Positions 1,372-16,646 of a stretch of 21,312 nt of DNA are shown one piece after another. The stretch comes from a virus, in UHGV virus genome UHGV-1468037; one strand, written 5' to 3'. The position numbers and the translations under genes were made by a program. Position 1 is the stretch's first letter. Every line of letters starts with the position of its first letter. A model generated the notes under the pieces. The model searched no databases. It had not been told where the DNA came from and worked only from the letters and a program-made list of their open reading frames with translations.

Positions 1372-1854
1372 CTATCTGGTCAGGGTGTCGTATTGTTTTT
1401 CGCAGACTCTTCCGGCTTCGGCTGCCCGGTCAGCATACTCTGCCAGTTGTCTGTTTCTCTCGAGAGATTTGCTGAGCACGTCGGCAAGCAAAACTCCGGT
1501 GTCTGCGGCTGACGTCCCAGCGCCGACAATGGCGTTATACTGCCTGAGCTGCTCACGGATGGCAAAGAGTTGTTGCTGCAACCGGCCAGCGCGAGCGGCA
1601 GCATCAAGAGAATCATTGCGCGCCTGGTCGATCCTCTGCTGCGCTTCACGTTCATTGATCGATTTCTCCTGTTCGTAGTGCTGACGAACTATCTCATCTT
1701 CAGCTTTGCGGTCTTCCTTCGCCTGCGCATACCCGGCATCGTACTGACGACTGCCGTGTGCATTCCAGGCTACAACTCCTGATATGACCAGAACAGCAAG
1801 CATCGCCATGATAACCAACTGTTTCCAGTATGCTTTTGCGAATGCCCAGATCAT
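1372..1854 (-). CDS. Rz-like inner-membrane spanin (i-spanin)
   Basis: 160 aa. N-terminal TM helix followed by a long charged coiled-coil region. Start overlaps the endolysin stop (ATGA). Contains a second embedded lipoprotein ORF in another frame. Confidence 0.8.
1380..1655 (-). CDS. Rz1-like outer-membrane lipoprotein spanin (o-spanin), embedded in Rz
   Basis: ORF fully inside Rz in a different frame. Lipobox LAGC after a basic/hydrophobic signal. Pro/Ser-rich mature part. True start may be the internal Met at 1616. Confidence 0.65.
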   Translation of the reverse strand: MNVKRSRGSTRRAMILLMLPLALAGCSNNSLPSVSSSGSITPLSALGRQPQTPEFCLPTCSANLSRETDNWQSMLTGQPKPEESAKNNTTP

Positions 1855-2480
1855 ACCGCCAGCACCTTACTGGCAGTGATGTATCGCGCGCGCCGGTCAT
1901 CAATGCCGTTCCGGCCACCATTGATAAGCAGAGTTACACGTGCAATATCTCCGGTATACTTCATGCAACCTTTGCTGGAGAAGAACCACGCCGCGCTACG
2001 AGCCGCGTATTCGTCCTGCGCCAACAGTTCAGGATTCTCCAGCAGGTCAACTTTCAGACCGTTTCCACAGTCACGATAGTTATTCAAACCGGTAATCTGG
2101 ATAAGCCCGCGCCCACGGTAATTCCAGCCATCACCAGGGGCATTGTTCCCCATGCGTTTGCTGTACACCAGATTTGCGATCGCGCGCTGGCGCTCGAGTG
2201 GCAATGGTGGTTCACCAGCACGGCGACCAAGTGCATTAGCCTGCCCCTGAGTGAGACGCCCAGCCCGAACGAAGTTAGCCAATCCGGTTACGCTGTAGTT
2301 GAAATTTTCCTGCAACCGGGTGAAGCCTCCAGACTCATGCCCGACCTGAGCAATAAACATTGCCTGATCTTCTGGTTTGCTGATACCAAACTCTTTCATC
2401 GCAGAAGTTATATGCGAGAACCAGCGAGCGGCCAGTTCCTCGCTGATACCAGCAGCTCGCTGGAATTGTTTAATCTCCAT
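1851..2480 (-). CDS. Endolysin, glycoside hydrolase family 19 (chitinase class I-like)
   Basis: 209 aa. Motifs typical of GH19 phage endolysins ([36 protein letters not shown]). Flanked by membrane-protein genes and Rz/Rz1. Confidence 0.8.
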
Positions 2481-2778
2481 GTTTAGACCTCGTTATTTTG
2501 AAAATCTGAACTACGTTACCGCGCGTTTTAATGACTGCAGCAAGCATGACAGCGTTGATAATGACCTCAGATAAATCCACAACCATTGGCGTGCGTAACC
2601 AGATTGCATAAGCGACACGAACTGGAATGCTGGCCGCAGCAACAATCAGGAAATAAGCAAGCCACCCACCCCATCGCCTGTGTTGAGAACCGTTTCTCCG
2701 AAATGTGGCAACTCGAACTGCTATACCGGCGCAAATAACCGCATTGGTGATAAGCAAAAAAAGCTCATGAGTTACCAT
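2470..2778 (-). CDS. Small membrane protein of lysis cassette (holin or antiholin candidate)
   Basis: 102 aa with 2-3 hydrophobic helices. Overlaps the endolysin start and the upstream membrane-protein gene. Confidence 0.55.
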
Positions 2779-3178
2779 CGTCTTTTCTCCCCGGAATTAA
2801 CTCGCGTGGATTATCGGAACGGTGATAGAGCCAGATCCCAATTCGCACAGCGACGATTGCTGACACAAATGCACCGGCAGAGAAAACAATCCCTTTCTCG
2901 AAAGAATCCTGTGTGATTGTAGGGATCAGGCTGGCTATGCCGATAAGAATTGATGCTGCTGGTTTGTAGAATAGAAGTCCGCAGAGAAAGCTAAGCATCG
3001 ACAAGAGCACGCGACGACGAATGGGATACTCTACCGCAGAGGTAACAAAAATCACCGCCCCAGCCAAAGACCCCAAAGCAACCTCAGGAGGAACTCCTGC
3101 TATCACTGCCGCCAAAGAACTCATGCTAAGCCACTGATTTAAAGTTTCACTGGTTAGTTGAGCTGACATGTTTTCCAC
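2765..3178 (-). CDS. Multi-TM membrane protein of lysis cassette (holin candidate)
   Basis: 137 aa with about 4 predicted TM segments. First gene of the lysis cluster, downstream of an AT-rich intergenic region. Confidence 0.55.
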   Translation of the reverse strand: MENMSAQLTSETLNQWLSMSSLAAVIAGVPPEVALGSLAGAVIFVTSAVEYPIRRRVLLSMLSFLCGLLFYKPAASILIGIASLIPTITQDSFEKGIVFSAGAFVSAIVAVRIGIWLYHRSDNPRELIPGRKDDGNS

Positions 3179-3535
3179 CGTTTATATGCATAACTACCTC
3201 CTGAACAGTAAAGCATTACGCATGATAAACCATTTATGGTTTTTTGTTACCCAATATTACCAATCCAATTCGCGATGGTCAAAACATATCCACAGCGGTA
3301 AGTTTGAGTGTTTTCATTTCCAAAACTTTATACAATAATATATGCAGTCTGTTATTTTTACGCACAATAAAAACACGATACCAGCTATTTCGCCATAAAT
3401 ACAATTTCCTTTAATGCTGCCAACAGTGCCTGCAAAACATATAACAGAACACATAAATAACAGGCATAATATAGATTTAATAATCTAAGTGCATATAAAT
3501 ATCATTTAAGAAGTTAAGAGCATTATTATAATAAC

Positions 3536-3565
3536 AATAACCCCGCTGTTTTATTCGGGGTTATT
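3536..3565. terminator. Bidirectional terminator hairpin downstream of the tail fiber gene
   Basis: 10-bp stem AATAACCCCG / CGGGGTTATT with a 10-nt loop, flanked by T-rich sequence on both strands; 10 bp past the tail fiber stop. Confidence 0.6.
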
Positions 3566-3575
3566 GCATTTATTA

Positions 3576-6551
3576 TTACATTGACATTAATATAAACATG
3601 GCTAATTCGTCATAACGAATTCCGTAGCGTCCTCCTGCTTTTTTTACAAGAATCATATCTCCTGTTTTATATTGAGAATAAATTTTCTCACCTGTATCAG
3701 GATCTGTGCTCTCTTCAGTTATCACCTCTTCATCCCATACGTCAGGCCATTCATCGTAACACCAAAAAGCATATTGCTCAGGGTTTAAACCATGCTTTCT
3801 AAGAATATCCCCTACGGTTTGAGCGCCAACGCCAAAATGATACCTGGACGACTCAATTCCTTTGTGATTAATTGAGTCATTAAATTTAAATTTATAGATG
3901 ACTGACTTTATTTCAATAGCGGCATTACGCTCTGCATTAAGAATATCATATCTTGTTTTAAGAGTTTCATCTGACGTATTGATTGACCCGGTTCCTGCAT
4001 AGATAACAGAGCATCTGTTTGATGGCTGTCCAATAGCTTTAACATTATCATCAACAGGAGCTATTTTATTAGCATCTGCCAACCACCAGTCTGTTCCATC
4101 AGCGTGACCGATTCTTACTCTTATCCCACTTCTAATATTTAAACTTCCAGTATTGCTCTGTAAATTACAATCTCCTGACGTTGGTCCAAGCAGTACAGTT
4201 TTACCAACACCACATACTACTCTGGCATTTCCTTTTTGTGATACGAGTCTTGACTCACCTCCTGACTGCTCAGGAAGAGATTTATGGTCTATAAATGCAT
4301 CGCGGGGGTTAAATACACCGTCTCCAGAATTATATCTTCCTCCTGTATAGTTGTTAAATACAGGACCCCAGTCAACGCCATTGCCTTCAGAGCACCCGAC
4401 CATTCTAAGCACTCGAGTATTCCCTGCTGCATATGGTAATGAGCTTGTTGATTGCCGGGAAGCTATCATACGTGCTCCATAACCAATAGCATTACCACCA
4501 TTTATAGTTACATATGCTTGCTGGCTTTCGAAATATGTACTGTAAAAGTTCATATTTCCACAGTCATGCAGATGAATAAGAACATCATCCCATCCCTGAA
4601 TGGTTCCCGCATGTACCTGTACACCGCGAACTGGTTCCCCTGAAACCTCCATACACTCTGATGGCCGGCTGAATGGCTGAGACAGGTATTGCGATGTGGC
4701 AAGCAGATGTGTGTGGTGATACAGGCTGGTAATGTAGCAATCGAAAAATTGCGTTCCCGCCATACCAAAGTTATCTATGTCATTTCGCCGTATAGTAGAA
4801 CCTACTGTTGCCTCAGAAGCGTTAGACACTCCAGTAAATACTAACTTATCACCGGATACGGATAATCCTGAATAAGTGAAATTCCTGCCTCCAGATCTTA
4901 AAACCCCGGACGTTTCGAAGGTGTGGCTTGCTGACCATGGGATTTCGATAGTGCTGGACGTTACCGCTGTAATTCGGAATACATCATGGGCGCGGATCGA
5001 AATACCCTTGAATCCCTGGAATCTACAGTGATAATAGTTTTCATCCTCGCCCTGAGCGGCCAGCGTGCCAGATACAGGAATGTTCGTTTTTAAAAGTGCC
5101 GTCTTGCGCCAGTATCCAACCACCTGCAAATTGCGGTATTCATTGCCAAAAGACGCACGTGACCAAATACCTACATCCCACTCATCGCCAAGACCGGTAT
5201 TTGCAATGTCTTTATAACCATCCAGCCCATTGAAATATGGAACAACACGAAAGTTCTCAAGGCGAACACATCCTGTCTCAGGCATCAATATTGCGGCAGA
5301 GAATGGTTTAAGCGTGGCTCTTGTAGTCCCATTAGCATCACCGTTAGTAAAATCCAATAAATCATATGATGACGCAGGTGCCGTTGTTGTATACGGGTCT
5401 TCGGAAGATGGATTAGAAACCACACCACCACTAACATCCATATTAGAAACACAATCTACAGTATATTTTTTATTTCCTACCCCGTACATCAGGAATGTGG
5501 TCCCTGTGGTAATATCAGGAGCAAATGTTGCAGTATATCCAGAGACCCATTTGCCCACACCAAGACCAATTATCCCACCACCAGAAACAGGTGTTAACGT
5601 ATCCGTTATTACATACGCATTATCAGTACCATAAATAACCTTTCCTGTGTTAATGGCAGCTTGCCACGCGGCCCAGTCTATTGACTGAGATAATGAGTCA
5701 ACAAAAGGATATAAGGATTTTGCTTCAGAAATTGAAGAAAACCTCTCAGATAATGGATGATATTTCCCATCCCCAATTGCTCCGAATTGTTTTACATTTA
5801 AGAAAAGAGCATTGTTTTCATGCTGAGTTATAGTTACAGCCCAGGCAAATGGCTGCCTTACACCAATTAATGCATCACCTTTTCCTTCTCCTGCGCTAGA
5901 TAATTGCAGAAGAACATCTGCGGCACTGCCAGAAGGCACAGGTACACCTATAGGTTTACCATTGACGATACCAATGACAGTTTCTTCCAGTAAATGAACT
6001 GGAGGAAGTGGTTCAATAAAATTATCTGGAACCCGTAATGTCCTGTTAATATTCACATTAACAATATTATCAACATAATTCTTTGTAGCTGCATCTTGAG
6101 GCTTGGAAGGATCGCGCAAATTGCGGATGTAATTATTCAAAGCATCGTAATAGTTTGCCACAAATGATGGTTTGCGCAGCGCCAGGCTAAACCAACTGCG
6201 GACTTGCTGTATCAGCATCGTCAGCTTATCTAACGCGTCTTCATGCACCTCAGCGAAAAACTTTCCCTGATTTCGCAGATCAGTTTCCTGCGTAACCGGT
6301 AGCTCTCGTGATATAGAAATCTGATAACCGTTAGCTAACGCCTTCGACAGAATTACATTACCGCCATTATATCCACCAGCCCCAGTGACAGTGTAATCAG
6401 TATCAAGAGCCAGCACAGCGATATTTTCGTCAAGGTCAACCACCTGTACTGCCAGATCAGATTCCTTGAAAACCCTAAAGGTATACGGAAATGATGTCGT
6501 AACGCCGTTACCTGTGTATTCGTTGTGGTCAACTTCGGTTGAGACCGTCAT
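3576..6551 (-). CDS. Tail fiber/tailspike with conserved N-terminal virion-attachment domain, central probable glycanase region, and C-terminal intramolecular chaperone (peptidase S74-like) domain
   Basis: 991 aa. N-terminus (TGNGVTTSFPYTFRVFKESDLAVQV...EVHEDALDKLT) resembles the conserved N-terminal domain of podovirus tail fibers/tailspikes. C-terminus (IYKFKFND...HFGVGAQTVGDIL...GGRYGIRYDEL) resembles the self-cleaving chaperone domain. GGAG RBS 8 nt upstream of the start. Confidence 0.75.
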   Translation of the reverse strand: MTVSTEVDHNEYTGNGVTTSFPYTFRVFKESDLAVQVVDLDENIAVLALDTDYTVTGAGGYNGGNVILSKALANGYQISISRELPVTQETDLRNQGKFFAEVHEDALDKLTMLIQQVRSWFSLALRKPSFVANYYDALNNYIRNLRDPSKPQDAATKNYVDNIVNVNINRTLRVPDNFIEPLPPVHLLEETVIGIVNGKPIGVPVPSGSAADVLLQLSSAGEGKGDALIGVRQPFAWAVTITQHENNALFLNVKQFGAIGDGKYHPLSERFSSISEAKSLYPFVDSLSQSIDWAAWQAAINTGKVIYGTDNAYVITDTLTPVSGGGIIGLGVGKWVSGYTATFAPDITTGTTFLMYGVGNKKYTVDCVSNMDVSGGVVSNPSSEDPYTTTAPASSYDLLDFTNGDANGTTRATLKPFSAAILMPETGCVRLENFRVVPYFNGLDGYKDIANTGLGDEWDVGIWSRASFGNEYRNLQVVGYWRKTALLKTNIPVSGTLAAQGEDENYYHCRFQGFKGISIRAHDVFRITAVTSSTIEIPWSASHTFETSGVLRSGGRNFTYSGLSVSGDKLVFTGVSNASEATVGSTIRRNDIDNFGMAGTQFFDCYITSLYHHTHLLATSQYLSQPFSRPSECMEVSGEPVRGVQVHAGTIQGWDDVLIHLHDCGNMNFYSTYFESQQAYVTINGGNAIGYGARMIASRQSTSSLPYAAGNTRVLRMVGCSEGNGVDWGPVFNNYTGGRYNSGDGVFNPRDAFIDHKSLPEQSGGESRLVSQKGNARVVCGVGKTVLLGPTSGDCNLQSNTGSLNIRSGIRVRIGHADGTDWWLADANKIAPVDDNVKAIGQPSNRCSVIYAGTGSINTSDETLKTRYDILNAERNAAIEIKSVIYKFKFNDSINHKGIESSRYHFGVGAQTVGDILRKHGLNPEQYAFWCYDEWPDVWDEEVITEESTDPDTGEKIYSQYKTGDMILVKKAGGRYGIRYDELAMFILMSM

Positions 6552-6654
6552 GTTAAATCTCCAGATAGTCGCAGCACCCGTTGCGCCGCATATCCGGTTA
6601 TTCTATTACCTGAAAAACCACATATGGATAGAAATACTGTGAATATGAATAGAT

Positions 6655-6671
6655 ATTACCTTTCGGGTAAT
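6655..6671. promoter_or_regulatory. Dyad motif copy 1 (ATTACC TTTCG GGTAAT)
   Basis: Perfect inverted half-sites TTACC/GGTAA with 5-bp spacer; one of four copies in the island; 76 bp upstream of the 85 aa gene. Confidence 0.5.
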
Positions 6672-6707
6672 TTGCAAAACGTGCTGGATAGCAAACAAAT
6701 TATTTGC

Positions 6708-6727
6708 TACTGTATAAATATACAGTT
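6708..6727. promoter_or_regulatory. LexA box (SOS operator)
   Basis: TACTGTATAAATATACAGTT: perfect CTGT-N8-ACAG with an AT-only spacer; about 20 bp upstream of the 85 aa gene start codon (6747). Confidence 0.75.
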
Positions 6728-6746
6728 ATTGCATGGAGAAGATAAG

Positions 6747-7004
6747 ATGCAGCAGTATCACTATCCACTGGAAGACGGATTTACCGAAAGGATTCACACG
6801 CCGGGAGGCGTCAGGTCACTGGTGGAGGGATCGCACTTGATGAAATTACTCCGGGATCTCGATAAGGATGGATTTAATGTCGATGGCCCACTTGCCGAAC
6901 TGACTGCACTGATTAACTACGTCACCAGCTCACAGATGTCTATGCGGGATCTGCAAACACATCTCGACTATTGTGCCGAACAATTACGAAAACAAACCCG
7001 GTAA
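6747..7004 (+). CDS. Small antirepressor-like protein; standalone paralog of the C-terminal domain of the downstream Ant-like protein
   Basis: 85 aa from ATG 6747 (GGAGA RBS). The upstream part of ORF 6624..7004 is rejected because it contains the LexA box and dyad site. Aligns by eye with the Ant-like C-terminus (LM.LL..L..DG..V.G..AELT ... RD.QTH..Y). Confidence 0.65.
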   Translation: MQQYHYPLEDGFTERIHTPGGVRSLVEGSHLMKLLRDLDKDGFNVDGPLAELTALINYVTSSQMSMRDLQTHLDYCAEQLRKQTR

Positions 7005-7010
7005 ATTTAA

Positions 7011-7028
7011 AGGCCGCAAGAGCGGCCT
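7011..7028. terminator. Bidirectional terminator between convergent genes
   Basis: Stem AGGCCGC / GCGGCCT with loop AAGA, T-rich on the plus side and A-rich before. Overlaps the stop codon of the minus-strand 242 aa gene. Confidence 0.55.
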
Positions 7029-7755
7029 ATCGTTTCGCTTTGTGCTCATCCCAGCACGTTTTGCACCATGCCATTAAGCCGTCCGCATTTTGATTATTAG
7101 GGTAAAAGCTGGTTCGTTTTCTGCGGACATTACAAATTGGGCACCACTTCATATGGCGTGTATTCTTTGGGCCATCGAGACACCTTGCACACCATTTAGT
7201 CAATCCATCTGGATTTTTTGACGATTTCCTGAATTTTTCATATGGAAGGTTTATTCTGCATCGCAAGCACTGCTTGCTACCACTTGAAACTCTGTTAGCT
7301 GATTCTTCTTTTGGCAGCGATACAGAAGGTATTCTTGCTGGCTCTGATATTGCCTGAGGTGCTTTTTTAGATGACTGAGACGATATGTCATCACCAGGGA
7401 ATCTTCCATGATATGCCGGACGCGTTGACACTCCAGGTGGAATCTCAGCTGTAAACGGCTTTGGCTGAATCAGTTGCCTCTCTTTTGCTAACTCCTGCTG
7501 TTTATAATATGTCTGGATTACCGCACTATCATAAGCAGGAGGTGCGGAAATATTAGGCGCATTACCTCCAGTTTTTTGAAACTGAGTAGAGGTGTGTTCT
7601 ATCACCTGTGTACGATTAATCGTTATCTCCCCATCTTCGGTCTTTATCGTTTTGTTATGATTAACGACCGTACGATCAGAGATCTTAGTCTTGTTCTGGT
7701 TGATAACGTAAATAATCACCGCAACCACACCAACAACTATCCAGAAAACTTCCAT
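7027..7755 (-). CDS. Membrane-anchored protein with two C-terminal zinc-ribbon (CxxC-N19/20-WCxxC) motifs; function unknown
   Basis: 242 aa. N-terminal TM helix (VFWIVVGVVAVIIYVI) followed by basic residues. Low-complexity linker. Two repeats: CLRC...WCARC and CPIC...WCKTC, in a basic context. GAGGA RBS. Divergent from the ant-like gene. Confidence 0.7.
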   Translation of the reverse strand: MEVFWIVVGVVAVIIYVINQNKTKISDRTVVNHNKTIKTEDGEITINRTQVIEHTSTQFQKTGGNAPNISAPPAYDSAVIQTYYKQQELAKERQLIQPKPFTAEIPPGVSTRPAYHGRFPGDDISSQSSKKAPQAISEPARIPSVSLPKEESANRVSSGSKQCLRCRINLPYEKFRKSSKNPDGLTKWCARCLDGPKNTRHMKWCPICNVRRKRTSFYPNNQNADGLMAWCKTCWDEHKAKR

Positions 7756-7918: not shown

Positions 7919-8049
7919 GGCACTGGCAAAATCCAGTGCCGGGATTGGCGTCCCGGATTACTACAGAGGCACATATGCCGCATAAGCGGTTTTTTTATGT
8001 GTAAAGCGCACCTATTCTATGGTGGGCTGTGTGGGGGCACCGAAAGGTG
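7919..8049 (+). promoter_or_regulatory. Structured leader upstream of ant-like gene (multiple hairpins including a terminator-like hairpin plus T7 run)
   Basis: Hairpins GGCACTGG/CCAGTGCC (7919-7940) and CCGGGA/TCCCGG (7939-7956) overlap and are mutually exclusive. CCGC-ATAA-GCGG followed by TTTTTTT (7978-7996). GCACC-GAAA-GGTGC (8037-8049). Confidence 0.4.
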
Positions 8050-8149
8050 CGCCGGGTCCTTTGTAGCCGGTTACGCCAACCCTGCACAGTTCACCACCAA
8101 CCGATTGGCGTCGGTAGTGGTGATTAACCTAACTACAAAGGTGATCACT

Positions 8150-8836
8150 ATGACTGCTAACGTAACCCCATCTGTTTTTCATTTTGAATCAGAAGCAACC
8201 ATTCGAGCCATTGTTATTGATGGAAATCCTTGGTTTGTTGCCAAAGACGTTATTAAAGCTCTTCAACTGACAAACCCCACTATGTCAATAAAATCTCTTG
8301 ATGATGATGAAAGGGCTAAATTTAACTTAGGCCGTCAAGGCGAAACCAATATTATCAACGAGTCAGGCCTCTACACACTGATCCTCCGCTGCCGCGACGC
8401 AGTGACACCAGGCACTATCCCCTACCGCTTTCGCAAATGGGTTACAGGTGAGGTTCTTCCTCAGATCCGCCGCACCGGAAGCTACATTAAAAACTCGCTC
8501 CCGCAGGAAGAGCGCATAAAGATGGTTGCCGACCAGGTAGCCAACGCCACGGCGTCAGCAGTAATGCAGGCGATGAAGATAGAGAACAAAACCTACAGTG
8601 CCCCACTGAAGCCAGGCTACCGCAGTCTGATTCATTCGCCGTCGGGTGTTCTCGGCCTGACGGAGAACTCATTGCTGATGAATCTGCTGAATCAGTTGCA
8701 GGACGACGGGCATGATGTATCGGGCGCGGCGGCGGAACTGACCACCATGTTCTGCTACATCGTCGGTGTGAGCAAATGCCTGCGTGATATCCAGACGCAC
8801 GCGGAGTACATCAACGACAAGGCAGGGTTCTTCTGA
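8150..8836 (+). CDS. Antirepressor-like protein with N-terminal BRO-N domain and C-terminal antirepressor-type domain
   Basis: 228 aa from ATG 8150 (AAGG 8 nt upstream). N-terminus matches the BRO-N pattern (IDGNPWFVAKDV...INESGLYTLIL...FRKWVTGEVLPQIRRTGSY). The longer ORF from 7997 would include the hairpin leader and lacks an RBS. Confidence 0.75.
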   Translation: MTANVTPSVFHFESEATIRAIVIDGNPWFVAKDVIKALQLTNPTMSIKSLDDDERAKFNLGRQGETNIINESGLYTLILRCRDAVTPGTIPYRFRKWVTGEVLPQIRRTGSYIKNSLPQEERIKMVADQVANATASAVMQAMKIENKTYSAPLKPGYRSLIHSPSGVLGLTENSLLMNLLNQLQDDGHDVSGAAAELTTMFCYIVGVSKCLRDIQTHAEYINDKAGFF

Positions 8837-9656: not shown

Positions 9657-10508
9657 TCACTGTGCAGTTTTCGCTGATCGATTTTCAGCTCTAAATTCAA
9701 GAACCGTTTCAATATTTCTTTCCTTCAGCATATCAATAACATTTTTATTCATTTGACTATCACTGGTTAATAACTGGTAAACGTTGCTTCTCTCTTTATC
9801 AGAGTTTTCTTTAACAGCTGCTTTGCATGCCAAATGCTTATTGAAATTTTCTACATCGCTAGTACAGGAATTTACGGCTGCTGATGAAATATCAGACGCT
9901 GAAGAAACACCGTCATCCAAACGTTTTATAGCATTTTCTATACATGAGTTAAGGGAATAAACGACAACTGAGCGATACCCTTCAGACGCACACCATTCTA
10001 AATTTCTTGAAGGATCGAGTGGTTTTACTTCGCTGGATTGAATTAACTTGTCAAAAACTGACTTATATTCAATCTGTTTTTTATCTATAGCCCATACTTC
10101 AGTAGCTGATTTATAATTCCCCGTATGCCTATTAACATCAAATCCATGTTTTATAAGCAAATCTGCCCATGAAAGATTTATTGATTCATTGTTATGAGGC
10201 CATTTTCCTGTCAGAACCGCCCCCATAGACCCCATATATCCGCCATATGATGGTATAGCACCATGGCTCAGTAACTTCTCTGCAACCACAGGGCAATTAA
10301 TTACATAAGAGGCGTAAAGCCCATTCCATAAAGCCCCTCTATAGTAATCGCCACGATTAGGTTCTTTTAAGTCGATAGCCTTTGATAATTGTTCGCACGT
10401 TTTGCATGCATCAAAGTTATCCTTATTGCATTGCAATGAACTGGCAGCTGTAGGATTTACAGAGACTATTGAAAGCACTATGCCAAAAAACAAATTTATT
10501 TTTTTCAT
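9657..10508 (-). CDS. Secreted cysteine-rich protein (283 aa), unknown function; accessory (moron) gene
   Basis: Sec-type signal peptide MKKINLFFGIVLSIVSVNPTAAS. Many Cys in the mature part. AT-rich codon usage unlike the neighbouring virion genes. Start codon 1 nt after the stop of the 1129 aa gene, so likely translationally coupled. Confidence 0.7.
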   Translation of the reverse strand: MKKINLFFGIVLSIVSVNPTAASSLQCNKDNFDACKTCEQLSKAIDLKEPNRGDYYRGALWNGLYASYVINCPVVAEKLLSHGAIPSYGGYMGSMGAVLTGKWPHNNESINLSWADLLIKHGFDVNRHTGNYKSATEVWAIDKKQIEYKSVFDKLIQSSEVKPLDPSRNLEWCASEGYRSVVVYSLNSCIENAIKRLDDGVSSASDISSAAVNSCTSDVENFNKHLACKAAVKENSDKERSNVYQLLTSDSQMNKNVIDMLKERNIETVLEFRAENRSAKTAQ

Positions 10509-10509
10509 C

Positions 10510-13500
10510 CTATTTCATCTGCTCTTCAACTTTATTTAGTAATGGTGATATCGCCCACAGATTCTGAAAAGGTAGCATTTTACGGACAGCGTGGGTTTGC
10601 TGGCTGTCAAATTCTCCGTTAAGTACACCATTTGCAACCGTCGCGGCATCACCGCCAAGATCAAAGGTAGGACCAAGTAAAGCACCAATAGCATTACGAC
10701 TCTGAAACCTTGATACCGGAGGCGCACCAAACATCGCGCCAAGACCAAACCTACCGCCGCTTATGTTCTCAACGGTATTCAGCGGCTCAGAGAGCCAGCC
10801 AAGCATTCCGCCCCGGTCGATCCCCTCTTTCACAAGGTTATTCCAGCTGTAGTCGATATCGCGACCGCTTAACTTCTGTTTCATCATATAGACCATTGAG
10901 CCAAGCGCAATCGTGCCAAGCGCACCAAGATAGAATGCAGCATCGCCCTGCTGGATACCAGATACCAGCACCCTGTTATGCTGTGCGAAGATAAACGTTT
11001 TGAACTGCGTGATCATCTTCCAGCCTTCTTTACTAAAAAACAGCGGTGTATCACCTACGCCAGGCGTTACAATCACTGAGTCTACATCTTTCAGCACTGC
11101 AGACTGGAAAATCTCTCTAGCGAAACGGTCATCCCACAGATGACTATGCCCGGTTAACAGCCCGTCCATATCCTCTCCGTGCTTCCCGAATTGCTCCCCG
11201 ATTCGGCGCAGAACATCTTCATTGATGCCGACCTGTGCCATCTTCCGCATTTCACTTTTGGAGAGCGTGCCACCAGCAGAAACTTGGCGAGCCGCGTCAA
11301 GTATCCTCGACTGCACTATCATCCCAGACCATGATTTAAGTGCGCTGTTCCACTGATTCATCAGCGTCCAGTTACCGAATTTCTGCGTCATCCAGTTCAG
11401 ACCTCGCTCAGCGGCGCTTCTCCGGCTATAGGGGTCAGTAAGATCCGCTATAGCCTTTGTACGCGTAGACAGGACATAATCAAGCCCAACTGCCATTTCT
11501 CGCAAATCCCTGGTTGCAATTTTCACTGAGTCCATATTTTTAAGCATGCTTACCATTGGTCCGAGAGATTTTCTCAGGCCATGCTGCATCATCGGTCGCA
11601 TCAGATCAGTTGCAGCGGAGACAGTCATTCCACCAAGCAAACGGAGGAAGTTAATATTCCTAGCAACTCGCCCGGCACGAACAAAGAAACTGCGTGGATC
11701 TTGAGGTGCACCGTAAGTACCAAGCAGTCGATCACGCATAGCCGTAATATCCCTAATATCAGCCTCCCGTTGCTTCTCAAGAACTGCACGTCGTTTAGGT
11801 GTTTTAGCCTCTTTTATTAGCCGGGTATATTCCTCACTAACCTGACGGATTTGCTCCCCCATATCTTTACGGCCAAACTGCGCAGTCAGCTCAATTTCTG
11901 GTGCCACCTGCCGGAGATAACTTTCCATGATGTAGTTAACATCTGATTCAAGAAAATCTTCTATACGCTCATCAGGAATAAGCAGCGTTCTGCTTTTAGT
12001 GAAACCAGCCCGACCAACGAGTCTCTCTGGGATAATATCGGCTGGTACAAGCCCGGAAGGTGCGCCTATTATTTTATTCACGATCTCGTCAGCAGCGTCC
12101 TCTGCTTCCTCTCGGGATAGAGGCTCCATCTGCTTCAGTGCTCGCTCGCGGCTTGCATTCAGCCTTGTGGTTGAATTTGCCCGTTTTTGCAGTCGGCGAA
12201 GCTCAGAACGATATTTCCGTGGATTATCCAGCAACTCCATATGGCGCTGATAGACAGGAAGCTCACTCTTTGCCTGCGCTATATCATCAAGGCGTGTTTT
12301 AAGGTCAGAGCTTTCTTTCATCATTCTTGCCTGAAGTTTTTCTGATGAAGTCTCGGCCAACTCTTTTTCTATTCTTGTAAGACGCGCCTGTGTGTCAGTC
12401 TCCTGAGATATAAGCTTATTTCGTTTATCCAGTTCTTCCATGAGTAGAATTTTTTTACCAGACCATTTCTCCGCTTCAGCGATTTCACTAGCGAGAGCAT
12501 CAGCGCGCGGTGCTGATTCCTCTGCAGTTTTTAGCAATGAATTTATCTTTTCAATTCGCTGACCTGCTTTGTCAGCACCTTTGGCACTAATCCCTTGTAT
12601 CCAGTTGGCAATTCGCCCTCTGAATTCAGTGCGGTCGGAAAGTATCTTATCGAACTTATAAATGCGGGGAAGATAACTCTTCGCCGTCACGACATCGATA
12701 TCCTCAGGAAGGATCCCCAATTCCTGCATACGGGCTTTTGTGGTCTCAAAAATGGGGCGGATTCTGGCGGCTGCTTGTGAAACCTCAGGAATATCACTCT
12801 GATCACCACGGCGCATAGCCATGCCAACAGCTTCATTGAAATCAATAAAGTTCATCCTCTTCACGCCGCGGGCGCTGACAGATTTGCTGTACTGCTGGTA
12901 AGCATCACGAGTAGCTTCCATCTGCTTATAAAGCATGGCGTCGTATTGCTTAATCTTAGTCTCGACTGCCGTAAACGTAGCCAACCCCTCATCATTTTTG
13001 GCGAAGAAATAGTTATTTTCGGCAAGCTGCTGGTTAATCTGACGGGAGACAAGAGATGGTGATTGCGCCAAGCGGCCAGCAGGAGTGACACTCAACGTTT
13101 TGTTAGCAAGTCCAAGTCCAGCGAGCTGTTCCTGATCGAGTGTGGTATTGAAAACCTGAGCTGCACCAATGCTTTGAGGAGAATCCATACCTCGCAAATG
13201 ATTACCTACTGAGTTAACCACTGCCTCGCGCGCGCTAGGTCCAGCAAGTAGCTGTGCACCAGCACCAAGGATCCCACCAACGAGAGCATCAACAACAACG
13301 TTCGATACGCTCTCCATCGGTGAGCGAGCTTCCTGAGTGGCCTGTAATGCGGCTTCTGATACTCCCCCACCAGCAGCATTCGCCAGGGCAAAACGCCCTG
13401 CCGTCTCAGCAATACTTCCTCCACGCGCTACCGCCCCTACAGGGATGAACATTGCAGCCACATTAACCGGGTCTATCATTCCCATTGCTAAGCTTGAAAT

Positions 13501-13899
13501 AGTACCAGCACCACCCATTTCAGATAGATATTCTCTATCTGTTCTTTGCTTATCGATTCGATGTTTAATTGCCATTGTTTCTTCATGCGAACCGGAGTTG
13601 ATAAACGAATCTGCAAAATCTTCATAGCCTTTAATATCTGCTGCATCGTTATCAAATGGGTTATATCCTTCAACCCTGTCAAACTGACTGAAAGGAGCAC
13701 TGGCAATAAAGCTACCCAGCGTGTTATCTATACGAAATGCTGCTTGTCTAGACCTTTGAACGCGTTGATCACTGGTAAATGGGTTCACAGCAGAAAGCAA
13801 AGAAGGTGTTTCCATATAGAAATTACTGTCATCAGGTGCTGCTATTTGCTGAATATCCTCGCCAAGCAACTCTTTAGGATCCTGTTCATATATCGGCAT
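10510..13899 (-). CDS. Large internal virion/ejection protein (T7 gp16-position analog)
   Basis: 1129 aa. Last and largest of four consecutive overlapping genes following the tail-tube genes. Gly/Ala-rich and coiled-coil segments. No recognisable enzymatic motif seen by eye. Confidence 0.6.
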   Translation of the reverse strand: MPIYEQDPKELLGEDIQQIAAPDDSNFYMETPSLLSAVNPFTSDQRVQRSRQAAFRIDNTLGSFIASAPFSQFDRVEGYNPFDNDAADIKGYEDFADSFINSGSHEETMAIKHRIDKQRTDREYLSEMGGAGTISSLAMGMIDPVNVAAMFIPVGAVARGGSIAETAGRFALANAAGGGVSEAALQATQEARSPMESVSNVVVDALVGGILGAGAQLLAGPSAREAVVNSVGNHLRGMDSPQSIGAAQVFNTTLDQEQLAGLGLANKTLSVTPAGRLAQSPSLVSRQINQQLAENNYFFAKNDEGLATFTAVETKIKQYDAMLYKQMEATRDAYQQYSKSVSARGVKRMNFIDFNEAVGMAMRRGDQSDIPEVSQAAARIRPIFETTKARMQELGILPEDIDVVTAKSYLPRIYKFDKILSDRTEFRGRIANWIQGISAKGADKAGQRIEKINSLLKTAEESAPRADALASEIAEAEKWSGKKILLMEELDKRNKLISQETDTQARLTRIEKELAETSSEKLQARMMKESSDLKTRLDDIAQAKSELPVYQRHMELLDNPRKYRSELRRLQKRANSTTRLNASRERALKQMEPLSREEAEDAADEIVNKIIGAPSGLVPADIIPERLVGRAGFTKSRTLLIPDERIEDFLESDVNYIMESYLRQVAPEIELTAQFGRKDMGEQIRQVSEEYTRLIKEAKTPKRRAVLEKQREADIRDITAMRDRLLGTYGAPQDPRSFFVRAGRVARNINFLRLLGGMTVSAATDLMRPMMQHGLRKSLGPMVSMLKNMDSVKIATRDLREMAVGLDYVLSTRTKAIADLTDPYSRRSAAERGLNWMTQKFGNWTLMNQWNSALKSWSGMIVQSRILDAARQVSAGGTLSKSEMRKMAQVGINEDVLRRIGEQFGKHGEDMDGLLTGHSHLWDDRFAREIFQSAVLKDVDSVIVTPGVGDTPLFFSKEGWKMITQFKTFIFAQHNRVLVSGIQQGDAAFYLGALGTIALGSMVYMMKQKLSGRDIDYSWNNLVKEGIDRGGMLGWLSEPLNTVENISGGRFGLGAMFGAPPVSRFQSRNAIGALLGPTFDLGGDAATVANGVLNGEFDSQQTHAVRKMLPFQNLWAISPLLNKVEEQMK

Positions 13900-16646
13900 T
13901 ATTTGCCCCCTGCGTATATATTGCTCGGAAGGTAATTGGCTGAACCATAACCGAATGGTTTGGTCAGATCTGGAGGAGTATATCCATCTTTATTGCTGAA
14001 CTGCGGCAGCGGATTGCCTTCTCTCCGCACTCTAGCCTCATCAACACGCTGTTGCTGGAACTGAATGGTTTGCCTGTACATTGGAGATGTCAGCTGATCC
14101 GGCTTGAAACGAACAGGGAGACCATTTTCTCCAATATAATTTCTCGGTTCTATCGCTCCGTTTGCGTCAGGCTGTAAAACCATAACAGCATAACTCCTAT
14201 CCCTTGCCGTAAGGCCATCAGAAACAAGTATTAAGTCCGTATCACTGCGAGGACCGCCAAAGGATTTTGATTTAAGCTCGCGTTTTTCCTGCTCCCACTG
14301 CCCCTGTATCCAGTTACCAGCACCATTATTTACTCCGTACAATGCCTCAGGTGCATACTTCATAACCTCTGCTTTGCCATTAACTGTAGAAACTCCCCAG
14401 GTGGTTCTGATCATGGCATTGGTCATTTTCTCAGCCTGTTCTGCATCGCCACCTGTCTGTACAAAGTTAGCATCGTAAATTGTCTGGTAATCTCGCTGAT
14501 AGGCCGCATTTGATTTTCCTGGATCGGTAATATCCGGAGACCACGAACCAAAGGAAGTCAGACTGCTGGCGTTATTTTGTGCAGCAGTTGCCCTCGCCGC
14601 GACATATTTTTTGTCTCGCATGGCAGTGGAAAGCATCTGTTTCATTCGGTCATCCTGTTGGAACACCTGGCTGTAAGCCATATCAACAGCCTTATCCTCC
14701 GGCACGCCAGCGCGGGAATAATCGTAAACCTTGCCGTAAAATGCCATCGTACTTTTATCAAGTGTTGCCGCTGCCGCCGGATTATTATCGAATAACTGAC
14801 CGTAGAATTTTGCCATCGGGACAACCAGCGCAGGATCTCTTGATGTTGCTCCACTGTTAAGCATTGTTTTAACCTGAGTTGGTATCATGCCGCTTTTAGT
14901 TGTGACGGTGACCAGTGTATTGATGCTCTGCGGATCAGATATGGAAAACGAAGGCGCGATATCCTGCGCGAAATAACGGTCTACCGCTGCCTGATTGTTT
15001 TTGTCGTTAGGGTCCAGCGGGAAGTTATTTTGCATTGAAGACACGAACCTGTTTCTTCCCTGCTGAATCTCCCACTCCCTATCCATCTCTTTAAATTTGG
15101 CCTGCATTTTCTCCCAGCGTTGCTGGTTAGCTGCAAATCCAAGAGCGTTTGGATCCTGTGGACGTAAACGTTCAAGAATGTCTTGTCGTCCTTCTGGAGT
15201 GAGGTCTTTAGCGGCACCAATGACACCTCCATATTGTATCTGCGCCTGCATATCCTTCCACTTCATAGCGCCAATGCGCGGACCATTGGCCCGGATAAAA
15301 TCGTCCTCAGAAGGTAACTTCTCAGGTTTCAATCCTTCATCAAGGGCTGAATATGCATCTTTAACTACGGTGCTAAGCTGGTCCGCATACTGCTGGCGGT
15401 ACTGATTTCTCAGCTCATTAGCCTGCCTCAATGCCTGTATTTGCATTTGAGGGCTCATAGCGTCAAATGCCGCATTGCCCGTATAACGCTTAGGTGAATC
15501 AAGGTTAGTTAGACCAAGGGCTGCCGAGATACCAGTTTCAAGCTGTTCGGTGCTATAAGGCATACTGCCATTTTCGTGTTTAATAATCCCAGCACATAAA
15601 GCAGCTAGTGTCTTTGGGTTAGAGATATCAAGCTGATCATTCTCCCCAACACCAAGCTCACTACACAATGCCCTAATATAAGCATCAGTATTATTACCAT
15701 CACTAGCCGGAGCATAGCGATTAACAATCTCGCTAACGGTGTCATAGCCTTGACGCTGGTAAGACAACATATTTTTACCCAACGCGCGGATTCCATGCTC
15801 AGGGGTAGCAAACGTTGCAAAACGTCCATCGCTACCGATCTGACCTTCCCACGGGTTAGATTTGCTCGCTTCAATATTGCCAGGGTTATTATTACGTAAA
15901 CCACGAGCATCCAATGAATTACCATGTGATATTGCACGACTCACACCATCAAGATCCCCTGGCTCTCCATTAACCTGAAGAAACTCGTTGTATTTTTGAG
16001 CGATATTTCCTATCCATGCTTGCTGCCCCATTTGTTCCTTGAGCTGAGTTTTCTGCTGAACACGCCACTCATCAGGAAGCCCATGCGCATCAGCGTATTG
16101 ATCAATAGATTCAAATCGCTGCTTGGCTAAATCGACAAATGCTTGGTTATCGCTATATAGCCCCGCAGACTGAGTGACAGCCAATGCATTTCCTGACAAA
16201 TACGTTTGATCTTGGAATTGCTGAAACTGCCCAACTTCATATCGACGTGCCTGATTGTAATAAGACTGCATAGACTGCTGGAGTTGAAAGGATAATTTAT
16301 TCCTTTCCTCACTTTCAGGAATTGAGCCTAATAATGCCTGAGCCCTTTCCTGCATATTTTTCATAACAGCGTCACTCTGACCAAGAGCGTTTTTACCCTG
16401 TTTAGAAATCAGCCCATTTTCAGGGTTGTTAATCTGGTCATCTGCAAATTGGTTAAATTGCAGTAACGCCTCCTGGGCCATAGCAACATTCGCTTTCTGC
16501 CTAGCTTCACCATATGCCACCGCATACTGATCTGCGACATTCGCCAGCACCTGACCTGCTTGAGGAACATCGAAGGTCTGAAAACCACCGGTTTGCACAC
16601 CACGACTTTGCACCTGGCGTCCGGATGTAGTAGGAACAACAGGCAT
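13899..16646 (-). CDS. Large internal virion/ejection protein (T7 gp15-position analog) with an embedded conserved motif block
   Basis: 915 aa. Start/stop overlaps with neighbours. Contains the block ...GLRNNNPGNIEASKSNPWEGQ...GRFATFATPEHGIRALGKNMLSYQRQGYDTVSEIVNRYAP..., which I recall as recurring in phage virion proteins, possibly a wall-acting domain. Confidence 0.6.
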   Translation of the reverse strand: MPVVPTTSGRQVQSRGVQTGGFQTFDVPQAGQVLANVADQYAVAYGEARQKANVAMAQEALLQFNQFADDQINNPENGLISKQGKNALGQSDAVMKNMQERAQALLGSIPESEERNKLSFQLQQSMQSYYNQARRYEVGQFQQFQDQTYLSGNALAVTQSAGLYSDNQAFVDLAKQRFESIDQYADAHGLPDEWRVQQKTQLKEQMGQQAWIGNIAQKYNEFLQVNGEPGDLDGVSRAISHGNSLDARGLRNNNPGNIEASKSNPWEGQIGSDGRFATFATPEHGIRALGKNMLSYQRQGYDTVSEIVNRYAPASDGNNTDAYIRALCSELGVGENDQLDISNPKTLAALCAGIIKHENGSMPYSTEQLETGISAALGLTNLDSPKRYTGNAAFDAMSPQMQIQALRQANELRNQYRQQYADQLSTVVKDAYSALDEGLKPEKLPSEDDFIRANGPRIGAMKWKDMQAQIQYGGVIGAAKDLTPEGRQDILERLRPQDPNALGFAANQQRWEKMQAKFKEMDREWEIQQGRNRFVSSMQNNFPLDPNDKNNQAAVDRYFAQDIAPSFSISDPQSINTLVTVTTKSGMIPTQVKTMLNSGATSRDPALVVPMAKFYGQLFDNNPAAAATLDKSTMAFYGKVYDYSRAGVPEDKAVDMAYSQVFQQDDRMKQMLSTAMRDKKYVAARATAAQNNASSLTSFGSWSPDITDPGKSNAAYQRDYQTIYDANFVQTGGDAEQAEKMTNAMIRTTWGVSTVNGKAEVMKYAPEALYGVNNGAGNWIQGQWEQEKRELKSKSFGGPRSDTDLILVSDGLTARDRSYAVMVLQPDANGAIEPRNYIGENGLPVRFKPDQLTSPMYRQTIQFQQQRVDEARVRREGNPLPQFSNKDGYTPPDLTKPFGYGSANYLPSNIYAGGK

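Follow-up and report, generated by a model that had tools for sequence, protein, structure and literature searches.

A modular tailspike of an epsilon15-like Escherichia coli prophage and its putative specificity for capsules of the K13/K20/K23 group

The window analyzed here, meaning the whole 21,312-nucleotide (nt) stretch of the virus genome UHGV-1468037, is the late-gene end of an Escherichia coli prophage of the epsilon15/phiV10-like (Uetakevirus-like) type. On its minus strand, an uninterrupted open reading frame (ORF) with an ATG start occupies exactly positions 3576-6551, as read from the ORF list and its translation, and encodes a tailspike of 991 amino acids (aa). An earlier note, made from the sequence alone, had described the product as a tail fiber with an N-terminal attachment domain, a probable depolymerase body and a self-cleaving C-terminal chaperone. 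This three-module reading held, with no element of it contradicted, and can be extended by a target: the spike is most likely a depolymerase for the capsule built of ribofuranose (Ribf) and 3-deoxy-D-manno-octulosonate (Kdo) that characterizes the K13/K20/K23 group, a putative assignment that combines homology with the capsule loci of lysogens.

The gene is confirmed as real, far beyond chance, because its DNA recurs at 99.3-99.6% identity in 11 complete E. coli genomes and the tailspike families of PHROG match its product with E = 0. The copies in those genomes are mostly labeled 'tail fiber domain-containing protein' in RefSeq, and more than 100 near-identical E. coli copies of the protein dominate homologue searches. 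From computed masses, the predicted products of the precursor are a mature spike of 92.9 kDa and a released chaperone of 15.3 kDa. The GenBank record of phage YDC107_2 (CP025713.1) contains the same tailspike at positions 2711-5685 with 99.4% DNA identity, where the 991-aa protein is split into at least five short coding sequences on both strands; this splitting is an annotation artefact and would hide the gene from protein-based surveys. The features of the gene and its product, all on the minus strand, are as follows.

3576..6551, minus strand: complete tailspike gene, 108 kDa precursor; PHROG 1171 'tail spike protein' matches over aa 1-991 (E = 0)
6559..6562, minus strand: ribosome-binding site GGAG, 7 nt upstream of the ATG, read from the sequence
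5886..6551, minus strand: virion-anchor module, aa 1-222, from homology to Dpo31, phiV10, Uetakevirus DNA and the T7-tail N-terminal domain
5862..5888, minus strand: module junction EGKGDALIG, aa 222-230, where Uetake-type and P22-type spikes become identical
4095..5882, minus strand: receptor-binding, probable depolymerase body, aa 224-819, from family searches, PHROG 33794 and PF12708 in relatives
5442..5819, minus strand: start of the body, approximately aa 245-370, resembling the cap and opening rungs seen in right-handed beta-helix tailspikes, from homology to 4RU5/4RU4
4527..5177, minus strand: stretch with candidate active-site residues, from conservation among relatives (D523, 87% conserved, and R642, 95%, lie within it)
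5175-5177, minus strand: D459, candidate residue, 97% conserved
4992-4994, minus strand: R520, candidate residue, 99% conserved
4716-4718, minus strand: H612, candidate residue, 95% conserved
4647-4649, minus strand: E635, candidate residue, 94% conserved
4527-4529, minus strand: E675, candidate residue, 97% conserved
3975..4094, minus strand: neck or stalk before the predicted cleavage site, aa 820-859, aligned with the pre-cleavage segments of 7Y5S, 3GW6 and 4UW8, and with a sub-threshold match to Pfam End_tail_spike
3579..3974, minus strand: peptidase-S74 intramolecular chaperone domain, aa 860-991, supported by PF13884, solved chaperones and a structural model
3972-3974, minus strand: S860, putative nucleophile, in the motif NTSDETLK
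3957-3959, minus strand: K865, putative base, in the same motif

The architecture of anchor, body, and neck with chaperone is held with high confidence. Starting from the N-terminus, aa 1-129 match the corresponding part of Dpo31, the tailspike of the Cobetia marina podovirus Carin-1 (PDB 8CK1/28LX; phmmer E 2.8e-25). In Dpo31, residues 8-87 form the beta-sandwich D1, placed at the virion base by cryo-electron microscopy and followed by the coiled coil D2 (PMC13317679). By analogy, the anchor probably consists of a beta-sandwich (approximately aa 8-90) followed by coiled-coil helices. The phiV10 tailspike (YP_512279) shares 67% identity over aa 1-262, being near-identical up to approximately aa 175 and fading by approximately aa 222. 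On the DNA level, the anchor shares 82-88% identity with the spikes of PAS61, TL-2011b and phiV10 over nt 1-483 and approximately 81% (80.7%) with that of the Salmonella phage VB_ST_E15, whose name is epsilon15-like, over the first 485 nt, with no DNA match to these four spikes beyond the first 483-485 nt. Spikes of the genus Uetakevirus have been found through a genus-conserved N-terminus of approximately 205 aa (Pas et al., 2023), and both such an anchor and a Uetake-like prophage context are present here. The particle-attachment domain of podovirus fibers that the earlier note had seen at the N-terminus is thus recovered by phiV10, by Dpo31 D1 and by remote homology to the T7 tail; its extent of about 130 aa corresponds to the Dpo31 match, whereas the conserved Uetakevirus anchor continues to approximately aa 222.

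The relation to T7 lies below the limits of Pfam, in which the T7 tail fibre N-terminal domain (PF03906) scores 10.8 bits against a threshold of 25.2 (E 0.4), with a match that covers profile positions 10-151 of 157. Aligning a profile of Uetake-type anchors with that of a genuine PF03906 protein gave an hhalign probability of 95.5% (E 1.5e-8) over 146 columns. The latter comparison supports a distant homology between the anchor and the N-terminal domain of T7 gp17, although by the Pfam criterion the anchor is not a member of PF03906.

Beyond the anchor, the remainder of the spike is found on more than one phage scaffold. From KGDALIGV onward, BLASTP shows 97% identity to a P22-type spike with the PF09008 head-binding domain, and four further complete genomes contain nt 669-2975 of the gene (aa 224-991) at 99% identity, joined there to a P22-type head-binding domain within a P22-like prophage located at argW. 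PF09008 is absent from the tailspike of the window and present in the sisters that share aa 224-991. Module exchange is therefore directly visible, with body and chaperone 97-99% identical on Uetake-type and P22-type scaffolds. More distant versions of approximately 80% identity are found behind Kuttervirus-type (PF18668) N-terminal domains or in proteins of 1150 aa, the body of phage YZ1, described in the literature as T7-like, is 78% identical, and Vectrevirus bodies are 42% identical. The modular exchange that had been proposed from base composition is in line with this result, as is the AT-richness itself: the GC content is 0.425 in the tailspike gene, 0.466 in the window and 0.467-0.503 in the internal-virion genes, and the lowest value within the gene (0.363) is that of the last 132 codons, which encode the chaperone. 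One strain, SBF22 (NZ_CP067235.1), harbors two prophages with the same body, one with a Uetake-type anchor and one with a P22-type head-binding domain; two matching places for the body are also seen in 702/18, DLL7555 and NZ_OZ547246.

At the other end of the protein, the C-terminal domain resembles the S74-type intramolecular chaperones. In phmmer searches against solved chaperones, the matches were 7Y5S (5e-23), 3GW6 of endoNF (9e-14), 4UW8 of T5 pb1 (1e-11) and 3GUD (3.5e-9), the homology spanning aa 820-988, and a profile of the family reached 3GW6 at 2.7e-39 and 3GUD at 7e-35. Pfam Peptidase_S74 (PF13884) matches aa 860-922 with 22.0 bits and just reaches its cutoff of 22, a score at the threshold only, which counts against the assignment. 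In the aligned structures, S860 faces the alanine of the uncleavable constructs 3GW6 (..TANGERK..) and 4UW8 (..NTADARLK..), where alanine replaces the nucleophilic serine in the endoNF and pb1 proteins used for crystallization, and K865 faces their lysine. The two residues thus occupy the positions of the endosialidase catalytic dyad, with the lysine five residues after the serine, and among 13 relatives K865 is invariant and S860 nearly invariant. Autocleavage via S860/K865 would release 132 aa; the S74 module that the earlier note had placed in the last 150 or so residues is present, while the part predicted to be released is somewhat shorter.

Structure prediction, which the earlier note had suggested as a check for an S74 fold, points the same way. 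In an AlphaFold2 model of aa 815-991, residues 864-991 have a predicted local distance difference test (pLDDT) score of 75-94, and the ten best Foldseek matches of this model in the PDB are all intramolecular chaperones, namely entries of 3GW6, 4UW8 and 3GUD (E 6.5e-9 to 1.4e-4, probability 1.00). The next match has E > 0.1, leaving the chaperone structures alone significant, and the template-modeling scores (TM-scores) are only 0.36-0.44, a range to be expected for a monomer model set against an intertwined trimer. The model therefore supports an S74 chaperone fold for aa 860-991. Chaperones of this type are shared with the L-shaped fibre pb1 of T5 (4UW8), the neck appendage protein 3GUD, the tail spikes 7Y5S and 9VVR, and phi29 gp12; the receptor-binding parts of pb1, 3GUD, 7Y5S and 9VVR differ from that of the window, and pb1 is a non-enzymatic fibre.

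The same chaperone with its Ser/Lys dyad is found in the endosialidases of K1 phages, such as endoNF of K1F (3GW6), and an E. coli group-2 capsule is the probable target here as well. Unlike these enzymes, the tailspike of the window lacks the endosialidase catalytic domain (glycoside hydrolase family GH58; PF12219/PF12217): only aa 825-859 align with the last 35 of the 160 PF12219 positions, at 22.7 bits against a cutoff of 25, and there is no further endosialidase match in Pfam or the PDB. The name 'putative endo-N-acetylneuraminidase', given by NCBI to one database copy of the protein, is consequently unjustified.

Between the anchor and the neck lies the body, for which the earlier note had allowed about 700 residues; a middle part of this kind exists, although it spans aa 224-819 and hence about 600 residues. 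Exhaustive scanning of 1.84 billion cluster representatives (clusters at 50% identity) with HMMER returned 1289 representatives related to the body at E<=1e-3 and 154 at E<=1e-30, so that the body is, by sequence homology, a member of a very large family of tailspike bodies. Residues 293-816 are covered by PHROG 33794 (E = 0). Of the 150 best relatives of the body, only 16 share the anchor, 60 share the C-terminal domain and 51 carry the motif T[SA]DxxxK. Pfam searches on 58 relatives found S74 in 28, the pectate-lyase-like PF12708 in 22 (with matches that reach profile positions 1-157 of 213) and T7-tail in four, together with one instance each of Peptidase_G2, the Kuttervirus tailspike N-terminal domain and the P22 head-binding domain.

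The start of the body is homologous to the beginning of the beta-helix in two solved tailspikes, phi297 gp27 (4RU5; phmmer E 9.6e-17) and LKA1 gp49 (4RU4; E 1.4e-13), with which it shares the motif VKxFGAxGDG...HPLSERF...DWAAxQAA. The family profile matches the same entries in the PDB at 2e-32 and 4e-26, followed by weaker matches to a GH55 glucanase, phi29 gp12, the Sf6 tailspike and a pectin lyase. An hhalign comparison of the body with LKA1 gp49 aligned 141 columns with a probability of 99.1% and ended there, and PDB chains of the Sf6/HK620/P22-like type match aa 221-270. Elsewhere, namely in the anchor, the later part of the body and the C-terminus, LKA1 gp49 and phi297 gp27 differ from the tailspike of the window. 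Across 143 representatives that are at most 50% identical to each other and about 30% identical to the query, the residues D459, R520, D523, H612, E635, R642 and E675 are strongly conserved, and D459, R520 and E675 are also invariant in a separate alignment of 61 sequences. Because these acidic, basic and histidine residues are kept so strongly, the body would be an enzyme rather than a fibrous shaft: such a constellation argues for an active site, which it fits better than a shaft. The body is therefore a probable, putative depolymerase, and a beta-helix fold may extend through its whole length.

Several points weigh against this assignment. Homology to a beta-helix covers only the first 140 or so residues of the body (approximately aa 225-370), the remaining residues, approximately 450 in number, match no solved structure or curated family in searches of Pfam, NCBIfam and PDB profiles, and the body of the tailspike itself has no Pfam or NCBIfam family match. 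A full-length AlphaFold2 model, built on a 13-sequence alignment, has a mean pLDDT of 35.6, at which the fold of the body is unreadable. Of the glycan-degrading body proposed in the earlier note, the beta-helix-like start and the conserved charged residues thus stand, whereas the confinement of the homology and the poor model make a beta-helix in the larger part no more than putative. A spike or fibre of the adhesin type, whose body binds a glycan without cleaving it, would agree with the missing catalytic family and the poor model, and fibres that are not enzymes, T5 pb1 among them, likewise use S74 chaperones. We nevertheless consider this alternative improbable, given that conservation of seven charged residues in 87-99% of 143 divergent relatives suits an active site better than a variable binding surface, that the body starts as a pectate-lyase-like beta-helix, and that the closest analogue of the whole architecture, Dpo31, is an active depolymerase (PMC13317679).

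Dpo31 (PDB 8CK1, 28LX, 28MG) is also the closest solved analogue of the whole protein for the putative depolymerase described here, with the same four-part layout: a virion-docking beta-sandwich is followed by a coiled-coil neck, then by an enzymatic body and finally by an auto-chaperone at the C-terminus, which the mature protein no longer contains. It is a proven exopolysaccharide depolymerase with domains D1-D4, of which D4, approximately 18 kDa in size, is consistently missing once the protein is purified (PMC13317679). The two proteins differ in that no similarity is detectable past approximately aa 130, and in that Dpo31 comes from a marine host and has an exopolysaccharide as its target.

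Regarding the receptor, Uetake- and P22-like spikes are classically specific for the O antigen, and the spike of a prophage usually matches its host (PMC10408124); the hosts of the spike were therefore typed. YDC107 carries wzx and wzy of O102, in agreement with its prediction as O102:H6 in phylogroup D (PMC6035167), EC21Z-151 and EC21Z-144 carry the O1 locus, and CH10508 carries the O86 locus. The same spike (99% identical) therefore occurs with three unrelated O loci, and searches of the wzx-wzy region found carriers in only one of the 60 listed O102 genomes and two of the 60 listed O1 genomes. Because the spike does not track a single O type, the O antigen was rejected as its primary target. 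In CH10508, the O86 wzy is annotated as frameshifted with an internal stop, and this strain may be O-rough or its assembly may contain errors.

The known specificity of Uetake- and P22-like spikes (PMC10408124) is one ground for the opposing explanation, in which the protein would be a conventional O-antigen-specific tailspike, as in phiV10, epsilon15, P22, Sf6 and HK620, and any association with a capsule would reflect shared host ancestry. The Uetakevirus anchor and the sister copy with a P22 head-binding domain belong to genera known for such spikes, and the nearest solved relatives of the body start are the Pseudomonas tailspikes LKA1 gp49 and phi297 gp27. The spikes of phiV10, epsilon15, PAS61 and TL-2011b have the anchor, genomic position and prophage type in common with that of the window; their bodies, by contrast, are unrelated to it. 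LKA1 gp49 acts on an O-specific polysaccharide. The spike of phiV10 lacks an S74 domain, is O157-specific and is followed by the seroconversion gene oac, whereas no seroconversion or other O-antigen-modifying gene follows the spike in the window, and its hosts point to the capsule. With near-identical spikes in O1, O102 and O86 backgrounds, few carriers within O102 and O1, and a rare capsule locus shared by most carriers, as described below, specificity for the O antigen appears unlikely.

The capsule locus of the carriers is far more uniform. Region 2 of the kps locus in YDC107, between kpsFEDUCS and kpsTM, encodes only an acetyltransferase and a 1114-aa 'HAD family hydrolase' that shares 96% identity with the KrkA protein of NCTC9022, the K13 reference strain. 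KrkA alone has been shown biochemically to polymerize the ->3)-beta-D-Ribf-(1->7)-beta-D-Kdop-(2-> backbone of K13, K20 and K23 (PMC12887879), three capsules that differ only in O-acetylation (PMC12887879; PMC13171606). This region 2 was found in 65 of 5426 complete genomes (1.2%), 60 of which were listed. Among the 15 complete genomes that carry the body, at least 11 have it:

YDC107, EC21Z-151, EC21Z-144, SBF22, HS4, E22: krkA-type carriers, from the region-2 search
702/18, DLL7555, CH10508, CS5L, UPEC_U013: further krkA-type carriers, from the same search

By chance, approximately 0.18 carriers would be expected (hypergeometric P ~4e-19, for genomes that are not independent), and a conservative count of six out of eight lineages still gives P ~6e-11. 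As an informal control, the 60 listed krkA genomes include none of the 10 listed genomes in which a Uetake-type spike has the anchor alone in common with this one. The acetyltransferase of the YDC107 type is only 36% identical to that of the NCTC9022 type, and the spike is present in 9 of 49 listed genomes of the former type and in 2 of 11 of the latter (K13_K23) type; because both acetyltransferase variants carry the spike, the shared backbone is the common denominator. The earlier note had held that the body determines host serotype, which is best read as the capsule K type and not the O serogroup, since the O loci vary and the krkA locus is shared. Capsule specificity of the spike is accordingly proposed with moderate confidence.

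On the other side of the balance, the link to the capsule is only a correlation across lysogens whose genomes are phylogenetically non-independent, drawn from the 15 complete carrier genomes rather than from the window's own host. Apart from the 11 krkA-type carriers, LS45 (NZ_CP095448.1) carries the spike with a different kps region 2, no kps locus was found at the expected place in XH992, and the count of 11 leaves aside XH992, NZ_OZ547246 and NZ_AP045773. In LS45, glf and genes for an acyltransferase, a sugar dehydrogenase and a family 2 glycosyltransferase (GT2) stand in place of krkA. The accessions of KpsF, E, D, U and C are identical in LS45 and YDC107, and because these region-1 proteins are identical, a recent capsule switch in LS45 is suggested. 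Such exceptions also bear on an explanation in which the spike targets another structure that covaries with lineage, such as a type of lipopolysaccharide (LPS) core, an exopolysaccharide or a protein, and the krkA capsule is a marker only. This would suit a correlative association in which many carriers may be related members of phylogroups D and F (YDC107 belongs to D; PMC6035167) and in which LS45 keeps the prophage without a krkA-type region 2. Yet the trait is rare (65 of 5426), it is shared across different O loci, two prophage scaffolds and both acetyltransferase variants, and common traits such as the core type would not yield such specificity; region 2 of LS45, moreover, looks recently replaced, as would result from phage escape or from capsule switching after lysogeny. 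We regard a mere lineage marker as the least probable of the three alternatives, if by a narrow step.

The explanation that we consider somewhat better than even as a whole is a three-module tailspike directed at the krkA capsule. In this model, the protein is the single trimeric tailspike of an epsilon15/phiV10-like temperate podovirus, in which the beta-sandwich and coiled coil (aa 1-222) would dock the spike onto the tail. The S74 domain (aa 860-991) would nucleate co-translational trimerization and folding of the body and then remove itself via the S860/K865 dyad, to yield a mature spike of ~93 kDa besides a ~15 kDa fragment. The body (aa 224-819) would bind, and most probably cleave, a polysaccharide of the host surface, most likely the group-2 capsule made by KrkA and probably not the O antigen, the target being the backbone common to K13, K20, K23 and the related locus type with a different acetyltransferase. 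Cleavage of the capsule would let the phage tunnel to the outer membrane, and the cassette of body and chaperone would move as a unit between phage scaffolds by recombination at KGDALIGV. A precedent for the P22-type copy of the body is CUS-3, a temperate P22-like K1 phage at argW with a capsule-specific spike.

A bolder extension, which is put forward tentatively and is more doubtful than the explanation just given, is that the spike is the first Ribf-Kdo capsule depolymerase identified from sequence, with a site at D459, E635 and E675 that cuts the beta-Kdo or the beta-ribofuranosyl linkage. It would then be the founding characterized member of the family of 1289 clusters, for which solved structures cover no more than the first rungs, and possibly of a new glycoside-hydrolase family. 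Phage glycanases that cleave the beta-Kdo linkages of K13, K20 and K23 were reportedly described biochemically in the 1980s-90s by Stirm, Altmann and Nimmich. In the literature searched, no sequenced phage enzyme for K13, K20 or K23 was found, nor the host type of the phages YZ1 and KMB14.

The combination of an exchangeable body with an S74 chaperone in a modular tailspike is textbook knowledge, and genes of this class are routine. The advance over the existing annotation lies in a concrete prediction, apparently undescribed so far, of specificity for the capsules of the K13/K20/K23 group. To our knowledge, the genes known for capsule depolymerases of E. coli account for very few K types, mainly K1 and K5. 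The K13_K23 type has recently been linked to invasive disease (PMC13171606), and the KrkA polymerase was characterized only in 2026 (PMC12887879). If the prediction is true, a cloned enzyme for the Ribf-Kdo backbone could be used as a reagent for K typing, as a tool against virulence or biofilms, as a module with which phages or tailocins are retargeted, and as a probe of Kdo and ribofuranose glycosidase chemistry. In addition, it would be unsafe to read the O serogroup of a host from the spike of its epsilon15-like or P22-like prophage.

Around the tailspike gene, the window begins at the prophage edge with the host genes yfgH and yfgI (80-1153), followed by a lysis cassette on the minus strand (1372-3178; an Rz-like spanin, an endolysin of glycoside hydrolase family 19 (GH19) and two holins), the tailspike, an anti-repressor/BRO region and the internal-virion genes. 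A scan for promoters and terminators around the tailspike gene gave nothing above background. The internal-virion (ejection) proteins at 10510-16646 (minus strand) are arranged unlike those of the EC21Z-151 prophage, with ORFs of 1129 and 915 aa here and genes of 2514, 1803 and 2475 nt there; the prophage backbones thus differ despite spikes that are 99.6% identical. Between the internal-virion genes and the anti-repressor region, at 9657-10508 on the minus strand, lies an ORF of 283 aa whose GC content is very low (0.37) and whose product clearly begins with a signal peptide (MKKINLFFGIVLSIVSVNPTAASS). The product matches PHROG 6118, a family of unknown function, but nothing in Pfam or the PDB, and the corresponding stretch of the EC21Z-151 prophage has no such gene annotated; the ORF resembles a secreted moron.

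Directly upstream of the tailspike, an ORF of 126 aa on the plus strand (6624-7004) repeats the C-terminal part of a 279-aa anti-repressor of the Ant/BRO-N type (7997-8836, plus strand). PHROGs 450 and 15539 match both proteins, and the shorter one may be a partial duplication or a remnant of the anti-repressor. Between the two, on the minus strand, an ORF of 242 aa (7027-7755) matches PHROG 6762, with weak C-terminal matches of the zinc-ribbon, endonuclease VII-like and Lar-like kinds, and a hairpin at 7011-7028, after this ORF, is the sole convincing terminator of the region.

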